From the NCBI GenBank assembly GCA_944377485.1, contig CALWFB010000005.1, forward strand, positions 12,236 through 76,235: a stretch of DNA of 64,000 bases, read 5' to 3'. A program made the position numbers and the translations under genes. The stretch is from an uncultured Clostridia bacterium. Its GTDB lineage: Bacteria; Bacillota; Clostridia; Christensenellales; UBA1242. The notes beneath the pieces are model-generated. The model saw only the letters and a list, made by a program, of their open reading frames with translations. It was not told the DNA's origin and ran no database searches. Numbering within the stretch: position 1 is the stretch's first letter; the number at the start of each line of letters is the position of its first letter. This document shows, piece after piece, positions 31,054-63,834 of this stretch.

Positions 31054-31278
31054 TTAATTATCTGAAATTCCTAAAATGTAATTGGCATCAGCACCTATAA
31101 CTTCACAAATGCGAGCCAATGTTTCTAATGATGGTAGTTTATTTGTTGTCCTATATTGACTAAGCAATGCAACATTTATTTCAACTGCTTTTGCAATATC
31201 CGTATATTTCATGCCACAATTCTCTAATTCTTCTTTTAATCTTGTTTTGATTAAATCTCTTCTTATCTTATTTTTCAT
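31054..31278 (-). CDS. small XRE-family HTH regulator (copy 1)
   Basis: 74 aa with a Cro/C1-type HTH (MKYTDIAKAVEINVALLSQYRTTNKLPSLETLARICEVIGADANYILG). The homologous part begins at Met17 of the track ORF. Confidence 0.85.
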   Translation of the reverse strand: MKNKIRRDLIKTRLKEELENCGMKYTDIAKAVEINVALLSQYRTTNKLPSLETLARICEVIGADANYILGISDN

Positions 31279-31346
31279 ATAAATATTATTGCCAAACGGG
31301 CAAAATATTACTTGACTTTTGCCCAACGGGAAAGTAAAATAATATT
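31279..31346. promoter_or_regulatory. 68-nt divergent control region with two palindromic operators and back-to-back promoters (module 1)
   Basis: O1 is TTGCC-AAACG-GGCAA (31289-31303) and O2 is TTGCC-CAACG-GGAAA (31319-33). For the + gene: TTGACT (31312-17), a 17-nt spacer, TAAAAT (31335-40), with the ATG 6 nt later. For the - gene: AATAAT (rc of 31285-90) lies 6 nt before its ATG. Confidence 0.65.
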
Positions 31347-31643
31347 ATGGATTGTAAAAATAAATTTTGTGTATATAATAGAAAATTAAAATGTATAAAA
31401 GATGAAATTTCAGTGAATAAGTATGGGCAATGCGCATACATTTTCTTACCAAAAGTTAAAACTTATTTTTCCGATGAAGAAAAACAGGACCATATTGATT
31501 GTTATAAAAATATATTATCCGATTTAAGTTTGGATTGGTATCTATACACTGAAAAATTAAAAATAGAAAATACTGAAATAAAATTAACAGATGAGGACAA
31601 TTTCAAAGATATTATCAATCGTTATTTTAACCGTCATCAATAA
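31347..31643 (+). CDS. small four-Cys protein, N-terminal DUF1540-like Cys motif (copy 1)
   Basis: MDCKNKFCVYNRKLKCIKDEISVNKYGQCAYIF shows the pattern C-x4-C-x-Y-N-x4-C-x3-E-I-S-V...C. It is divergent from XRE copy 1. Confidence 0.6.
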   Translation: MDCKNKFCVYNRKLKCIKDEISVNKYGQCAYIFLPKVKTYFSDEEKQDHIDCYKNILSDLSLDWYLYTEKLKIENTEIKLTDEDNFKDIINRYFNRHQ

Positions 31644-31854
31644 TTCCCAATATATAATTAGCATCTGCCCCAATAACTTCACAAATTGTAGAAAAATTTT
31701 CTATTGAGGGTAATTTTTTTCCACTTTTATATTGACTAAGTAATGCCACATTAATTCCAACAGCCTTAGCAATATCAATATATTTCAAACCACAATTTTC
31801 TAGTTCTTCTTTCAATCTTTTTTGTATTATTTCTCTTCTTAACTGTTTATTCAT
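31627..31854 (-). CDS. small XRE-family HTH regulator (copy 2, paralog of 31054-31278)
   Basis: 75 aa, roughly 70% identical by eye to copy 1 (LKYIDIAKAVGINVALLSQYKSGKKLPSIENFSTICEVIGADANYILG). Its 3' end overlaps the preceding + gene by 17 nt. Confidence 0.85.
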   Translation of the reverse strand: MNKQLRREIIQKRLKEELENCGLKYIDIAKAVGINVALLSQYKSGKKLPSIENFSTICEVIGADANYILGIIDDG

Positions 31855-31923
31855 ATGTATATTATTTACCAATGGGCAAAAAAATACTTGACGTTTACCA
31901 TTGGTAAACAATATAATATACAT
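31855..31923. promoter_or_regulatory. divergent control region with two palindromic operators (module 2)
   Basis: The operators are TTACC-AATG-GGCAA (31866-79) and the perfect palindrome TTTACCA-T-TGGTAAA (31894-908). For the + gene: TTGACG (31888-93), an 18-nt spacer, TATAAT (31912-17), with the ATG 6 nt later. For the - gene: AATAAT (rc of 31861-66) lies 6 nt before its ATG. Confidence 0.65.
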
Positions 31924-32208
31924 ATGAAATGTAAAAATTTATTTTGTGTATTTAGTAGAAGAAATGGTGAATGCATAAAGAAGTATATCTCCTTTGATGA
32001 AACAGGAATGTGTGAGCATATTTTTTATCCAGAAAGATTAAAAGGAATGCAAGACAGTTTAAAAGAATGTTATACAAAGGTTCCAAAAGGAATGGAAGGA
32101 CACCATTATAGACGTGAGATAATGTTGTATCTTCTAAACCAAGAACTCCGAGGAATCAAAAATTCAAGCAATCCAAAACAAGAAAAAGAAAATAAATCTC
32201 AACATTAA
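31924..32208 (+). CDS. small four-Cys protein, N-terminal DUF1540-like Cys motif (copy 2)
   Basis: MKCKNLFCVFSRRNGECIKKYISFDETGMCEHIF shares the Cys pattern with copy 1, while the C-terminal halves are unrelated. The homologous region starts at Met24 of the track ORF. Confidence 0.6.
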   Translation: MKCKNLFCVFSRRNGECIKKYISFDETGMCEHIFYPERLKGMQDSLKECYTKVPKGMEGHHYRREIMLYLLNQELRGIKNSSNPKQEKENKSQH

Positions 32209-32243: not shown

Positions 32244-32279
32244 CGCAAAAGCACTACGAACCTACTTTTGCGTTTTTTT
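32244..32279 (+). terminator. rho-independent terminator after the second Cys-rich gene
   Basis: cgcaaaag-loop-cttttgcg followed by ttttttt. Confidence 0.7.
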
Positions 32280-32308
32280 GTAAAAAAATTTTCAAAATTC
32301 TAATAAAA

Positions 32309-32662
32309 ACCTATTAATATAGGAAAAAGAGTAATGAGAGAAAACCTTTGGTAGTCGTCGAACATACAAAAAAAGAACCTATATCAAACATAAAAATATA
32401 AAATAATTAATTTATATAGTTATCATATCAATATTAACCATTAAAGAAAAATATTTAAAATAAATACCTATTGTTGGAAAGGAAGTAATGAAGGAAAACC
32501 TTTGCAAGGTGTTCCTTCATAGATGACGGGCAATCGCCCATAAATGAAAAAATCTCACTTTATAGTGATATTTTGATTAAAACGATAAAAAGTTTATCCT
32601 ATTTCAAAGGGGGAGTAATGAGGGGGAAAGACAGTTTTCCCCCTCATATAGTGTCGCAATAG
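32309..32662 (+). repeat. three dispersed copies of a CCTATT...GGAAAGGAGTAATGAGGGAAA repeat, each with an SD-like run, an ATG and (copies 2 and 3) a hairpin that pairs the ATG
   Basis: The ATGs are at 32334, 32488 and 32618, spaced 154 and 130 nt apart. Hairpins are atgaaggaa/ttccttcat (32488-32520) and atgagggggaaa/tttccccctcat (32618-32646). Confidence 0.6.
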
Positions 32663-32728
32663 CACGCTAATGCTATTTTTGCGATTTTACAAAAAAAATC
32701 GCAACTAGCACAAGGGCTAATTGCGACG

Positions 32729-32767
32729 CAGGTTGATGGCAACTATCTATTTTCTCGGGTCGTCTCC
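32729..32767 (-). pseudogene. orphan duplicate of the 3'-terminal 39 nt of the 5S rRNA locus
   Basis: The 39-nt string caggttgatggcaactatctattttctcgggtcgtctcc is identical to 32931-32969, the 3' part of the intact 5S gene. Confidence 0.85.
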
Positions 32768-32930
32768 GCGTCACGACTCTCGTATTTACTTAATTGCTCG
32801 CATCAACTCGCAATTTTCGTCTATCTCTCGGTCGTTCCTTTCCCCCACAAAACTTAATTTTGTAGGGACCCCTTTAGATTTGGTTGTTCGACGAAAATAT
32901 AAAAAAAGAACTCGTATCAAACGAGTTCAT
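32768..32930. other. 163-nt element between the 5S fragment and the intact 5S gene; homologous to 56794-56954
   Basis: Shares co-linear blocks with the tRNA-Leu-locus element: CGTC, ATTG(C/T)TCGC, CTCGCAATT, GTAGGGACCC and GACGAAA. Its right end contains the 5S terminator. Confidence 0.6.
32900..32928 (-). terminator. rho-independent terminator of the 23S-5S unit
   Basis: gaactcg-tatcaaa-cgagttc with a T-run on the minus strand, immediately 3' of the 5S gene. Confidence 0.7.
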
Positions 32931-32933
32931 CAG

Positions 32934-33053
32934 GTTGATGGCAACTATCTATTTTCTCGGGTCGTCTCCAACCAAATATCTTCGACGTGTAAGAGCTTAA
33001 CTTTTGTGTTCGGAATGGGAACAAGTGGAACCTCTTAGCTATTATCACCATCA
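32934..33053 (-). rRNA. rrf: 5S ribosomal RNA
   Basis: The reverse complement reads tgatggtgataatagctaagaggttccacttgttcccattccgaacacaaaagttaagctctt...gttgccatca. The conserved CCGAACAC/GTTAAGC core and a terminal helix are present. Ends are accurate to about 5 nt. Confidence 0.88.
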
Positions 33054-33280
33054 TGGTACATTGAACATCAATTTTCATTGATTTAGAACAATGACAGCTG
33101 CATACTTCGGACATTTGACTTTTTGGCAAATTGCTATGCAATTATAGCCTTTTTAGTCAATGTCCTTCATTACTTCTTTTCCTTTTATCATAATATGATT
33201 ATTAAATAATGAAATAAGAAGACAACGAAGTAAATATAAATACCGTAATTTAGTCAAAAATCATTTCTCAAAAGGAAGGT

Positions 33281-36207
<2,927 letters not shown>

Positions 36208-56476: not shown

Positions 56477-56768
56477 ATTGTTATTATACCACAATTTGAA
56501 TTAAAAACAAAACATAAATTAAATATATTGTCACAATATAAAATATTGTTTTCAACTTAAAATGATATTGTAAAACATTTGTATTTTATAAATTATTTGT
56601 AAAAACTCCTTGCCAAAATTAAAAATTTATTGTATACTATAAAAGTACTTATACGAATTAATGCTCGATTATCTTTCTTCCTACTTCGAACTTTGTTCTT
56701 GTAGGGACCCGTCTTGTGCTTTGATTTTATAAGCATGTTGACGAAATTGTTTATCTTAATCAAATTAT

Positions 56769-56793
56769 GCCGGTGTGGCGAAATGGCAGACGC
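56769..56793 (+). pseudogene. orphan 5' fragment (acceptor 5' strand plus D-arm, 25 nt) of tRNA-Leu
   Basis: Identical to 56955-56979. Identity stops exactly at the D-stem / anticodon-stem junction. Confidence 0.85.
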
Positions 56794-56954
56794 TCGTCCC
56801 AATCTGCACCTTTGTTAGATTGTTCGCTACGCTCGCAATTCTAATTTAGTTTGATTGCTCCTCTTCCTACTTCGAACTTCGTTCTCGTAGGGACCCGTCT
56901 TGTGCTTTGATTTTATAAGCATGTTGACGAAATTATTTATCTTAATCAAATTAT
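56794..56954. other. 161-nt element between the tRNA-Leu fragment and the intact tRNA-Leu; homologous to 32768-32930
   Basis: It has the same block order and nearly the same block offsets as the 5S-locus element. Details are given in the findings. Confidence 0.6.
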
Positions 56955-57040
56955 GCCGGTGTGGCGAAATGGCAGACGCACAAGACTCAAAATCTTGCGA
57001 GGGCAACCTCATGTCGGTTCGACCCCGACCACCGGCACCA
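56955..57040 (+). tRNA. tRNA-Leu (anticodon CAA), class II with long variable arm, CCA encoded
   Basis: Acceptor GCCGGTG/CACCGGC; D-arm GCG-AAATGGCAGA-CGC; anticodon arm CAAGA-CTCAAAA-TCTTG; variable arm; T-arm GTCGG-TTCGACC-CCGAC; then ACCA. Confidence 0.92.
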
Positions 57041-57212
57041 TTAAAAAATACCTATTTTATAGCACTTTTATTAACTTTTAACATTTTAAAACATAGTTGA
57101 TATTTTATTAATTGTTTATTTTGACCCCATTCTTCATACAAAAAACTAGCACATGGCTAGTTTTTTATTATTTATAAGTTAAATTTCTAATTCTGAATAT
57201 TTTATTTGAATA

Positions 57213-61253: not shown

Positions 61254-62492
61254 CTAATCCTCACTAATTTCTCGATTCTCTGAATTTTGAGATTTATTAT
61301 TTTTATTTTTTACTATCAATTTCCCATCTACAATTTTATATTTCATAAATCTTATAAGAATATATGCTACAAACAAAACAATGCTCTGTGAAATCCTTCC
61401 AATATCCGTACAATATGGTGACATAACAAATACTGAAAGTATTGTCCATAATACCATCGTAAAAATATTTAATGTAGTATTAAGCGCAGGAGAGTATTCA
61501 ATCTGAGTATAAATCCCTAAAATTATAGCATATGTATCCATCATCATATCTAAAACTTGGAATAACAAATAAACAACCACAATAGGAATAGAAACATCAA
61601 TAAAAGCAACCAATATAAAAGTCATGATAACACTCGATAATGCTAAAATAATAGTATAAAAATATGCATTACGCATTTCTTTTTTGTAATTATATCTATT
61701 CTTTGCGATATCAACTTTTGCCACTGTATCACGTGCCGTCAACATGTCCCACTGCGTGTCAGTGCAAAGTGCAACCAAGTTTAAAGCAAGCAAATACTCC
61801 TCGCCCGCCTGAAAAGCATTTCTATAACCAAAAGTATAAATTACAAACATAAAAAGTGCATTGATAATATTACTAGATTCATAGCGTAAATTTTTAAAAA
61901 ATTTGAAATCAATTTTAAACTTTTCAAACTGCCAAATGTATAAAGAAACTACGTATATTAACATTATGCCAAGAGTAATCAACAATGCAACAAAGGTATT
62001 TGGAATACACGCACATAGCAAAATTACAATTAAAAAATTGATAATGTTAAAACTGAATAGATGAATATTTGCCAGTTTTTCTTTATCTTCAAAATATAGT
62101 TTTTCTATAATAAATTGCACTAATGTTTGTTCAAATAATTGTGCTATCCCATAAATTACATAGATTTTGTAAAAGTCAATATTTTGACCAAAAAATGTGA
62201 TATATTCATCTATAAATATTATTGGCAAAGAAAATATAATTATTGAAAAAATTGTGCCCCAAAGAATGCTATTCCAAACTGCGTTTTTATCATGTTCTTT
62301 CTCTTTTCGGATATTTGCGCCAGAGCCAAAAAAACAGCGAAATATTATCCAGACAAATTGAAATGCATAACAAATTGAAAATACATTTGCTATCCTGTCA
62401 TCTCCTAATACAAAAGAAAGAATAATCCACGATAGAACGGGGATTATTGAGTATATAAATAGGCCACTTCCAATGCTAAATAGACGTTTCAT
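61254..62492 (-). CDS. polytopic membrane protein (paralog A; flippase/MOP-like topology, family not verified)
   Basis: 412 aa with about 12 TM helices. Roughly 65-70% identical by eye to the adjacent 410-aa protein. Confidence 0.6.
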   Translation of the reverse strand: MKRLFSIGSGLFIYSIIPVLSWIILSFVLGDDRIANVFSICYAFQFVWIIFRCFFGSGANIRKEKEHDKNAVWNSILWGTIFSIIIFSLPIIFIDEYITFFGQNIDFYKIYVIYGIAQLFEQTLVQFIIEKLYFEDKEKLANIHLFSFNIINFLIVILLCACIPNTFVALLITLGIMLIYVVSLYIWQFEKFKIDFKFFKNLRYESSNIINALFMFVIYTFGYRNAFQAGEEYLLALNLVALCTDTQWDMLTARDTVAKVDIAKNRYNYKKEMRNAYFYTIILALSSVIMTFILVAFIDVSIPIVVVYLLFQVLDMMMDTYAIILGIYTQIEYSPALNTTLNIFTMVLWTILSVFVMSPYCTDIGRISQSIVLFVAYILIRFMKYKIVDGKLIVKNKNNKSQNSENREISED

Positions 62493-62601
62493 ATTTGAAA
62501 TTATTTTTTCTTTTATATGATACCAAAAAAAATTAAAAATGTATATAAATTTATTAATTTTATGTAATTAAGGCAAAATTTTATTTTTGATTTAACTAAT
62601 T

Positions 62602-63834
62602 TTAGTTTTTATCTTGATTTTTTGTTTGAATTTTACCATGTAAATTCTCTTTAACAATCAATTTGTTTTCAACTACTTTATATTTAGAAAATCTTATTAC
62701 ACTAAATGAAATAAATAACATTACACTTTGACTTATTTGTCCAATATCCGTACAATAAGGTGACAATATTAATAGTGATAAAATAGTTCTAATTATCATG
62801 GTAGATAAATTAAGCACTGTATTAATAATTGGTGAATATTCAATCTGGGTATAAATTGATAATATAGAAGTATATGTATCCAAAAACATTCCTATTATTT
62901 GAAAACTTAAATAAGTGATAAGCAATTTTGCAGAAACATTTATAAATGACACCAGTATTAATGACATTATAACGCTTGATAAACCAACTATAATTGTAAA
63001 TATATATGCTTTTTTTATTTCGGAAGCATAATTATATCTATTTTTAGATATATCAACTTTCGCCACAATATCATAAGCAGTCAGCATATCCCACTGTGCA
63101 TCTGTACATAGAGCCACAATATTCAGTGCTAAAAGATATTCTTCCCCTGCACTAAATGCATTTCTATATCCGAATAAATAAATTATTAGCATAAAAAGCG
63201 CATTGAACAAATTCGCAGACTCATATTTTATGTTTTTAAAAAATTTGAAATCAATTTTAAATTTTTGAAATTGCCAAACATACAGACATATTACATAAAT
63301 CAATAATACAGCCAATGTGGCAATCAATGCGATAAAAGTATTTTTAATACAAGCACATAATATAATAAGAATCAAAAAATTTAAAATATTGAACACAAAA
63401 ACATGAATATTTGCTAATTTTTCTTTATCTTCAAAGTATAATTTTTCGATTATAAATTGTAAGAGAGTTTGAACAAATAACTGTGTAATACCATATATGA
63501 CATATATTCTATAAAATTCTGCATCCTGTCCGAAAAAATTTATATATTTGTCTACAAATATTATAGGAATTGAAAACACAATAATCGCAAAAATTGTTCC
63601 CCAAAAAATTCCATTCCATGTTGCATTATTATCGTGTTCTTTTTCCTTTCTAATGTTGGCACCTGAACCGAACAGACATTTAAATATCGACCAAACAAAT
63701 TGAATTGCATAGCAAATAGAAAATACATTTGCTATCCTACTATCGTCTAATATAAATGAAAGAACTACCCATGAAAGAATTGGGATAATTGAATATATGA
63801 ATAATGAACTTCCTATTCCAAATAATCGTTTCAT
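62602..63834 (-). CDS. polytopic membrane protein (paralog B)
   Basis: 410 aa, co-linear with 61254-62492 (MKRLF.IGS.LFIYSIIP.LSW..LSF.L.D.RIANVFSICYA.QFVW...). Confidence 0.6.
   Translation of the reverse strand: MKRLFGIGSSLFIYSIIPILSWVVLSFILDDSRIANVFSICYAIQFVWSIFKCLFGSGANIRKEKEHDNNATWNGIFWGTIFAIIVFSIPIIFVDKYINFFGQDAEFYRIYVIYGITQLFVQTLLQFIIEKLYFEDKEKLANIHVFVFNILNFLILIILCACIKNTFIALIATLAVLLIYVICLYVWQFQKFKIDFKFFKNIKYESANLFNALFMLIIYLFGYRNAFSAGEEYLLALNIVALCTDAQWDMLTAYDIVAKVDISKNRYNYASEIKKAYIFTIIVGLSSVIMSLILVSFINVSAKLLITYLSFQIIGMFLDTYTSILSIYTQIEYSPIINTVLNLSTMIIRTILSLLILSPYCTDIGQISQSVMLFISFSVIRFSKYKVVENKLIVKENLHGKIQTKNQDKN

Follow-up and report, generated by a model that had tools for sequence, protein, structure and literature searches.

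A partial duplication at a tRNA-Leu(CAA) gene of an uncultured Clostridia bacterium, probably the footprint of a small structured insertion element

The DNA analysed here, a 64-kb stretch from an uncultured Clostridia bacterium (hereafter the window), carries a single tRNA gene, tRNA-Leu(CAA), which was located by ARAGORN and Rfam at 56955-57040 on the plus strand (RF00005, 56 bits). By a repeat search we observed that a 118-nt direct repeat lies at this gene, at 56676-56793 and 56862-56979 of the plus strand, with 97% identity and a spacing of 186 nt; formally, the locus amounts to 1.6 tandem units of 186 nt. A preliminary description of this DNA had reported a duplicated segment of 117 nt with 3 mismatches; the duplication and its mismatches stand, and the repeat is one base longer. 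It is made of 92 nt of upstream sequence and nt 1-25 of the tRNA gene, and, as had been described, only the second copy continues into a complete tRNA. The first copy ends with an orphan fragment (56769-56793, plus strand) having the same sequence as nt 1-25 of the gene, and the identity between the two copies stops exactly between nt 25 and 26, at the 3' foot of the D-arm, where it had been said to end.

Upstream of the first copy, a promoter scan revealed a promoter-like sequence, TTGCCA-17-TATACT, at 56610-56638 of the plus strand; this site had been announced at about 56609-56638, with an 18-nt spacer. The same promoter-like sequence is present upstream of tRNA-Leu in the two closest species (L013 and L033), and a terminator-like hairpin lies downstream of the tRNA gene at 57140-57166 (plus strand). 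Judging from the sequence, it is plausible that the orphan fragment, the DNA between the copies and the tRNA are co-transcribed from this promoter. Two minus-strand open reading frames, at 56593-56802 and 56827-57012, do exist as claimed; they mirror the repeat and have no support as genes. At about 57115-57130, downstream of the tRNA gene, three other assemblies (L003, L004 and L005) have a 13-nt tandem duplication (TTGACCCCATTCT twice) that the window does not have.

Two independent ENA assemblies of the same species (L003 and L005) carry the tRNA-Leu duplication, and in L005 the first copy has diverged at about 8 positions; the duplication is therefore real and not an assembly artefact. Within the species, the two-unit allele stands against a one-unit allele: L004 is exactly 186 nt shorter and its single unit is a hybrid of the copy-1 and copy-2 variants, although at about 5x coverage this allele could be an assembly collapse. 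Short-read Logan contigs (unitig-type) stop at the repeat.

The 5S rRNA locus of the window has a similar layout. A 39-nt repeat, 100% identical, is found there at 32729-32767 and 32931-32969 with 163 nt between the copies, and read on the plus strand both loci have the order gene fragment, intervening element, full gene. The intact 5S rRNA gene lies on the minus strand at about 32931-33052 (RF00001, 87 bits) and its last 39 nt form the proximal copy; the displaced copy (32729-32767, minus strand) is followed, on the 5S strand, by the native terminator at 32698-32727. The duplicated segment corresponds to nt 79-117 of the 5S rRNA and runs exactly to its 3' end. Between the copies lies the element that we call E (32768-32930, plus strand), with a core at 32768-32872 that comprises the left end GCGTCACGACT, a hairpin P1 (32792-32815) and a hairpin P2 (32844-32872). 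In its right arm, a hairpin at 32908-32928 acts, according to the terminator scan and when read on the minus strand, as the terminator now placed behind the 5S gene.

The 69-nt spacer between the two tRNA-Leu repeat copies had been assigned to the left part of the element at the 5S locus, and both alignment and a covariance model bear this out. The two copies of E align over the left end KCGTC.C.A, then a hairpin ATTGC...GCAAT, then CTCGCAATT-N46-GTAGGGACCC; the last of these motifs occurs three times in the window (32862, 56701 and 56887), against 0.32 occurrences expected by chance. We also considered that the spacer derives from a decayed second 5S or tRNA gene, and rejected this candidate, having seen no likeness to the missing gene parts.

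E has a core of about 105 nt, and the window copies are 161-163 nt long. The core starts with a left end (K)CGTC(R)C(A)AAC, continues with an imperfect long hairpin (P0/P1) and a pyrimidine tract, and finishes with P2, a perfect hairpin whose end is GGG(N)CCC. At the tRNA-Leu locus the core occupies 56794-56897 (plus strand), with the left end TCGTCCCAATC, the closing helix P0 (56800-56804 with 56853-56857), P1 at about 56818-56841 followed by the pyrimidine tract, and P2 at 56866-56891, ending in GTAGGGACCC. We built two covariance models, R1 from 14 copies and R2 from phage copies only. R1 matched three copies in the window, the one at 5S (106.7 bits), the one at tRNA-Leu (104.5 bits) and a degenerate one, E', at 56610-56738 of the plus strand (46.5 bits, E-value 7e-8). 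R2 matched the tRNA-Leu core at exactly 56794-56897 and also the 5S copy.

On the strength of the R1 match, the region upstream of the first repeat copy, promoter included, is a degenerate older E, and the tRNA-Leu locus thus consists of about two tandem units. The promoter-like sequence sits in the diverged left part of E'; the right part, with its P2 hairpin (56680-56710) and a segment antisense to the tRNA (56711-56719, plus strand), belongs to repeat copy 1, in which it is followed by native flank from upstream of the tRNA (about 23 nt) and by the orphan fragment. In the same way, repeat copy 2 is made of the right part of E, native flank and nt 1-25 of the tRNA. The preliminary description had missed the degenerate upstream copy, the two tandem units, the widespread nature of the inserted element and a junction common to at least 10 species, which is described below.

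The hairpins of E are conserved. Among the copies from species close to Candidatus Onthoplasma, RNAalifold gave the closing helix CAAYC/GRTTG together with P1, with compensatory changes in 12 of 15 pairs. In 16 copies from phages and Subdoligranulum, compensatory changes were seen in all 7 pairs of P1 and all 6 inner pairs of P2; in these copies 82.7% of cells were paired, against 33-50% when the partners were slid, and the covariation score exceeded that of all 500 shuffles. Two further inner helices that had been proposed were not supported. Since the hairpins are symmetric between strands and E is found in both orientations relative to neighbouring genes, the folding data are strand-neutral and fit an RNA as well as a single-stranded DNA. 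Two ideas on what E encodes were dropped: a small peptide, as the reading frames through E differ among L070, L071 and L072, and a promoter within intact E, where no convincing -35/-10 pair was seen.

Searches of Rfam 15 with both window loci and two phage copies, at the gathering threshold and up to an E-value of 10, gave no relevant match, ribozymes included, and literature searches, by consensus string and for MITE-like repeats of these taxa, returned nothing relevant. HDV-like theta, hammerhead and twister ribozymes or elements flank tRNAs or split phage operons. E resembles them in its positions, precisely at the ends of tRNAs or between structural genes of phages; it differs by having no Rfam ribozyme match even at an E-value of 10, and by its occurrence in both orientations relative to its neighbours. 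A Pfam search of 30 window proteins revealed housekeeping genes only. As Pfam searches of the neighbours and the window detected no transposase, integrase or reverse transcriptase near either locus, it is from presence and absence alone that the mobility of E is deduced.

For the 5S locus, we compared strains that share an identical neighbouring hydrolase gene. In two of them (L100 and L101) E is missing and the native terminator lies directly behind the 5S gene; the flank of L101 is the same as that of the window. L102 is filled as in the window, with the 39-nt repeat and 163 nt, and in L103-L105 and L002 E is present with a shortened distal fragment. Filled and empty alleles differ by exactly one 202-nt unit, which supplies a new terminator to the 5S gene; the empty alleles could be ancestral, or could be precise deletions between the 39-nt repeats. 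A strict pattern of three motifs gave 0 matches in genome contigs and, in metagenome contigs, only the 5S locus of another strain.

Several smaller observations concern the same locus. Between L102 and the window, about 9 of the 163 positions of E differ, against an identical flanking terminator and 5S gene; this reflects either fast evolution of E or separate acquisition in the two strains. A decayed remnant resembling the right arm of E was recognised by eye further downstream of the 5S gene (32325-32400, plus strand), and GAAGTAATGAAGGA-like motifs are present between 23S and 5S and, downstream of 5S, at three further places (32260-32700 and 33160-33185); together they suggest several older rounds of insertion or duplication. 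A 117-aa open reading frame adjoining 5S returned no record on look-up. The 23S gene (33279-36207) and 5S have no 16S gene with them within the 64-kb window, and protein genes lie directly upstream of 23S, so that the rRNA genes appear unlinked.

The gene beside the tRNA is polA. By its best match, at 85% amino-acid identity, the window belongs among uncultured Clostridia near Candidatus Onthoplasma. The preliminary description had proposed a comparison of the polA-tRNA-Leu interval in relatives. In about 20 of them tRNA-Leu adjoins polA, and the junction GGCAGACGC/KCGTC between orphan and element is identical in at least 10 species, in the order orphan nt 1-25, E, full tRNA. Orphan fragment and junction are present in L014, L016 (with two orphans), L022, L023, L026, L029, L034, L035 and L037. 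E is absent from L017, L020, L033, L038 and L043, and L013, like L004, keeps only its right part, behind the same promoter. Other arrangements were also found: in L031, L040 and L016 E is inverted and its left end abuts nt 1 of the tRNA, and in L018 and the more distant Clostridia genome L058 E lies directly behind the CCA end.

The direct repeat measures 25, 36, 47, 63, 69 or 118-131 nt depending on the species. Within each genome its copies are near-identical, whereas the column identity of E between species is only about 56%; the duplication must therefore have been made or homogenised recently in each lineage. A second type of partial tRNA-Leu duplication was seen in L023 (5239-5310), L026, L030, L019 and L025; it consists of a pseudo-tRNA (nt 1 to about 48), 23 nt, and a full tRNA-Leu with a different anticodon stem, with a period of 71 nt. 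In three species (L014, L020 and L037) tRNA-Leu, with E where present, is inverted relative to polA.

Scans of IMG/VR gave clear homologues of E in more than 40 viral contigs, with the consensus TCGTCGTCGCAAAC...P1...GYTCCGTTGCTCCTCCTCTCCCC-P2-GGGGNCCCC and a length of 105-116 nt; E was also found in replicons of Subdoligranulum variabile. The viral copies occupy at least 8 contexts, among them both sides of the head-tail adaptor gene Ad1, towards the head-closure gene or towards the major head gene, the interval between cos and the small terminase gene, and positions behind the portal gene and beside a RecT-like gene. In L071 (2635-3459; GenBank MT839034) E is in frame inside the gene of a predicted secreted protein, just past the signal peptide, and in L070 (1782-2810; MT839899) it forms the C-terminal extension of an open reading frame, in a frame different from that of L071. 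In L111 (855-965) the left-end motif, inverted, abuts nt 1 of a phage tRNA-Ser(UGA), other sequence replacing the rest of the core. The left-end module is also combined with other right parts (L110 family, L111, L124), and most of the core is deleted in L127 and L139.

Precise empty sites exist for these phage insertions. In related Heliusvirales phages without the element, the Ad1 and head-closure genes overlap, and the major head gene and Ad1 are adjacent; the filled and empty forms can be compared at the Ad1/Hc1 junction (L065 against PV036457 and PV036426) and at the major head/Ad1 junction (L076 against PV036426). The phage insertions are clean, with 0-3 nt duplicated. The phage-only model R2 matched the Onthoplasma-like copies exactly at the expected coordinates, with E-values of 4e-4 (L016), 5e-4 (L023), 2e-3 (L034), 0.1 (window 5S) and 0.49 (window tRNA); with modest scores of 14-28 bits, this sequence match supports homology of the phage and Onthoplasma-like cores.

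With its anatomy, the homology of its copies, its filled and empty alleles, its conserved hairpins and its wide distribution, E is probably a small, non-coding, non-autonomous structured insertion element, the repeat at tRNA-Leu being its footprint. Local slippage or tandem duplication without a mobile element, or an assembly artefact, would accommodate the 1.6 tandem units of 186 nt and the breaking of short-read contigs there. Such an origin by slippage, with no shared element, was what the preliminary description had named as its own refutation, and the data go the other way: the spacer has homologues at the 5S locus, 24 kb away, and among phage elements, independent assemblies contain diverged copies, the junction is common to 10 species and the 5S locus has filled and empty alleles. 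We consider this explanation hardly credible.

Returning to the insertion element, the order of events that we infer is the following. E would have inserted behind nt 25 of tRNA-Leu, giving nt 1-25, E and the full tRNA, and the gene would survive thanks to a direct duplication of its 5' part (at least 25 nt, depending on the upstream flank) that accompanies the insertion. More generally, at stable RNA genes insertion would be accompanied by, or survive only with, a duplication that regenerates the gene. In the window the 186-nt unit would be present about twice, the older upstream unit having lost its own orphan and its left part now carrying the promoter; the right parts would have been kept about 97% identical, most likely by unequal crossing-over or gene conversion, and the same recombination would yield the single-unit allele. 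At the other locus E would have gone into the 5S gene at its 3' end, with a 39-nt duplication, supplying a terminator. We read the orphan fragment as a by-product of the insertion; the stable 5' tRNA-half-like RNA for which the preliminary description had suggested a test would be a hypothetical product of it. Since phage insertions are clean (about 3 nt at most), the duplications of 25-131 nt at RNA genes need an extra explanation: selection could favour gene-preserving events, or the mechanism could differ.

Target-gene segments repeated at both ends of an insert (here tRNA nt 1-25 and 5S nt 79-117) recall integration into tRNA genes. Elements that integrate into tRNA genes by means of an integrase leave tRNA gene fragments as att repeats (10.1101/2022.07.05.498093), and E likewise has an orphan tRNA fragment beside the insert, an intact gene and tandem accretion. 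One could then see in E the remnant, or a miniature mobilised in trans, of an integrase-driven element, with the gene fragments as attL and attR and the tandem units formed by accretion. The regenerated gene between direct repeats of the tRNA or 5S segment, the precise and recurrent junction position, and the tandem units at tRNA-Leu (window, L016) and at 5S (several decayed remnants) all suit this proposal. However, we found no tyrosine or serine recombinase in the insert (161-163 nt, no real open reading frame) or among its neighbours by Pfam, and an insert of about 160 nt without integrase departs from the known elements, as does the duplication of the 5' rather than the 3' part of the tRNA. 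No fixed att core was seen either: the repeats vary from 25 to 131 nt by lineage, the tRNA and 5S targets have no common core sequence, and E also sits in phage operons, without any att-like duplication. Moreover, its left end abuts nt 1 of the tRNA (L031, L040, L016; tRNA-Ser in L111) and the CCA end (L018, L058). An integrase-driven origin seems to us very unlikely.

Similar comparisons were made with other small elements. The Rickettsia palindromic elements (RPE), the pneumococcal BOX and the enterobacterial ERIC are non-coding, hairpin-forming and modular units of about 100-150 nt without a transposase of their own, found in intergenic regions, in frame within open reading frames, and in or beside stable RNA genes. 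Compared by description only, E shares all these features, including insertion into (L071) and extension of (L070) a reading frame and a modular left end (L110, L111, L124): it is a short non-coding unit with covarying hairpins in many contexts (tRNA, 5S, phage intergenic regions, open reading frame, Subdoligranulum replicons). It differs from them by its hosts, gut Clostridia and their phages, by the absence of any known sequence relationship, and by having two unlike hairpins, strongly conserved single-stranded tracts and long target duplications at RNA genes. By analogy, E may be said to resemble the RPE/BOX type of structured repeats in its behaviour.

Correia and RUP are examples of MITEs, and IS1634-type elements make long and variable target duplications. 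Like MITEs, E is short and non-autonomous, with presence/absence polymorphism (filled and empty alleles) at orthologous sites, and its long variable direct repeats recall IS1634. It differs in that its ends, TCGTCGTCGCAAAC... and ...GGGGNCCCC, are not mutually inverted, its target duplication is not of a fixed short length (0-3 nt in phages, 25-131 nt at RNA genes) and no parent IS with the same ends was found. A scan for the left-end motif alone gave modular or deleted variants and no coding element. E also shares with the bridge RNA or seekRNA of IS110/IS1111 a structured non-coding nature, a length of about 100-180 nt and a stretch complementary to the insertion site. It differs from them by the absence of a DEDD recombinase in the insert or its neighbours, by a single antisense stretch, supported at the tRNA site only, with no donor guide identified, and by its target duplications; to our knowledge, IS110 makes none. 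E departs from the definition of MITEs, of integrase elements, of IS110 bridge RNAs and of every Rfam family. We also rejected a template/variable repeat of the type seen in diversity-generating retroelements, since the region does not code for protein and the 3 mismatches show no adenine specificity.

The left end of E repeatedly abuts exact tRNA boundaries, namely nt 1, nt 25 and the CCA end. These boundaries keep open a structure- or RNA-directed mechanism or a functional leader role. An RNA-mediated origin, by template switching of a reverse transcriptase or target-primed reverse transcription between a transcript of E and abundant stable RNAs, would leave one precise end and target duplications of varying length, and would place the junctions at the ends of mature RNAs. 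As in target-primed retroposons, the left junction is invariant and the repeats range from 25 to 131 nt; the left end is placed exactly at nt 1 (L031, L040, L016, L111), at the CCA 3' end (L018, L058) or at the D-arm 3' foot, and the 5S repeat reaches exactly the 5S 3' end. But no reverse transcriptase was seen in the 64-kb window and the locus fragments covered, nor any tail or other mark of retroposition, either strand of E can form the junction, insertions in phages are clean, and in several species the duplication extends upstream of nt 1, outside the mature tRNA, which together make this origin quite unlikely.

A further view combines the insertion element with base pairing. E may represent a novel kind of structured mobile element. 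Pairing with its target would direct it to the termini of stable RNA genes or to the feet of their hairpins, through a single-stranded DNA or RNA intermediate and with a long gene-regenerating duplication. Its targets may be nt 1, nt 25 and the CCA end of tRNAs and the 3' region of 5S, and the candidate pairings may be those of the left end with tRNA nt 6-13 and of the antisense segment with nt 20-33. We regard this speculative view as unlikely.

The antisense segment itself was then considered. At the tRNA-Leu locus, GTCTTGTGC (56897-56905, plus strand) complements nt 24-32 of the tRNA (56978-56986) and spans the junction between nt 25 and 26. In the tRNA-type copies of E of 10 species, a segment at the same place, 101-112 nt from the left end, complements tRNA nt 20-33 with a match of 7-14 nt. 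This helix is predicted by RNAalifold. A single compensatory change was seen in it: L029 has a tRNA-Leu(UAA) with GCACAGGAC, matched by GTCCTGTGC in its E. RNAalifold also predicts an 8-bp hairpin between nt 6-13 of the orphan and nt 1-8 of E. On these sequence grounds we treat the tRNA antisense segment as a conserved feature. For 5S, a specific antisense guide had been proposed by eye; this candidate was set aside, since it is not the best inverted match at 5S and a shuffle test gave no support.

These pairings raise the question of a function. The orphan and E could form a conserved cis-acting 5' leader of pre-tRNA-Leu, in which the two pairings govern how the RNA folds, how RNase P processes it or how much tRNA-Leu(CAA) there is; such a role would be compatible with an origin by insertion. 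The orphan 25-mer is the same as the gene in 7 of 11 copies even as E has strongly diverged, the antisense segment keeps its place in all 10 species, both helices are predicted by RNAalifold, and a promoter lies upstream of the whole array. On the other hand, several close relatives have no E (L017, L018, L020, L033, L038, L043) or only its right part (L013, L004), which makes it dispensable; at 5S, the homologous element and its gene are on opposite strands; and on a single sequence the 9-nt complement was reached by 73 of 1000 shuffles, which is not significant, with one compensatory event only. The conserved orphan, and the conserved antisense segment with its compensatory change, could mean that the arrangement is functional and not junk, and we hold a leader role to be possible, though rather doubtful.

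As an insertion element, E explains an odd tRNA pseudo-fragment and defines an unannotated family of structured elements of about 105 nt, common to uncultured gut Clostridia (Candidatus Onthoplasma-like species, Subdoligranulum) and phages. It breaks short-read assemblies, and the orphan tRNA and 5S fragments that it leaves may be miscalled by annotation pipelines. At stable RNA genes it remodels the promoters and terminators, and in phages it separates structural genes that are tightly coupled. If the exact junctions at tRNA boundaries reflect its mechanism, they would point to a new way of targeting RNA genes in bacteria.

Other duplications were observed in the window. At 31054-32208 there are two tandem paralogous modules, each pairing a small minus-strand gene of the HTH (XRE-type) kind with a divergent open reading frame, Cys-rich, of about 100 aa and without Pfam match; they share a DNA repeat of 258 nt with 78% identity (31066-31323 and 31642-31899), and the number of modules varies among strains (L100-L105). 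At 61254-63834, two neighbouring paralogues on the minus strand, encoding 412 and 410 aa, have 71% DNA identity over a stretch of 300 nt.
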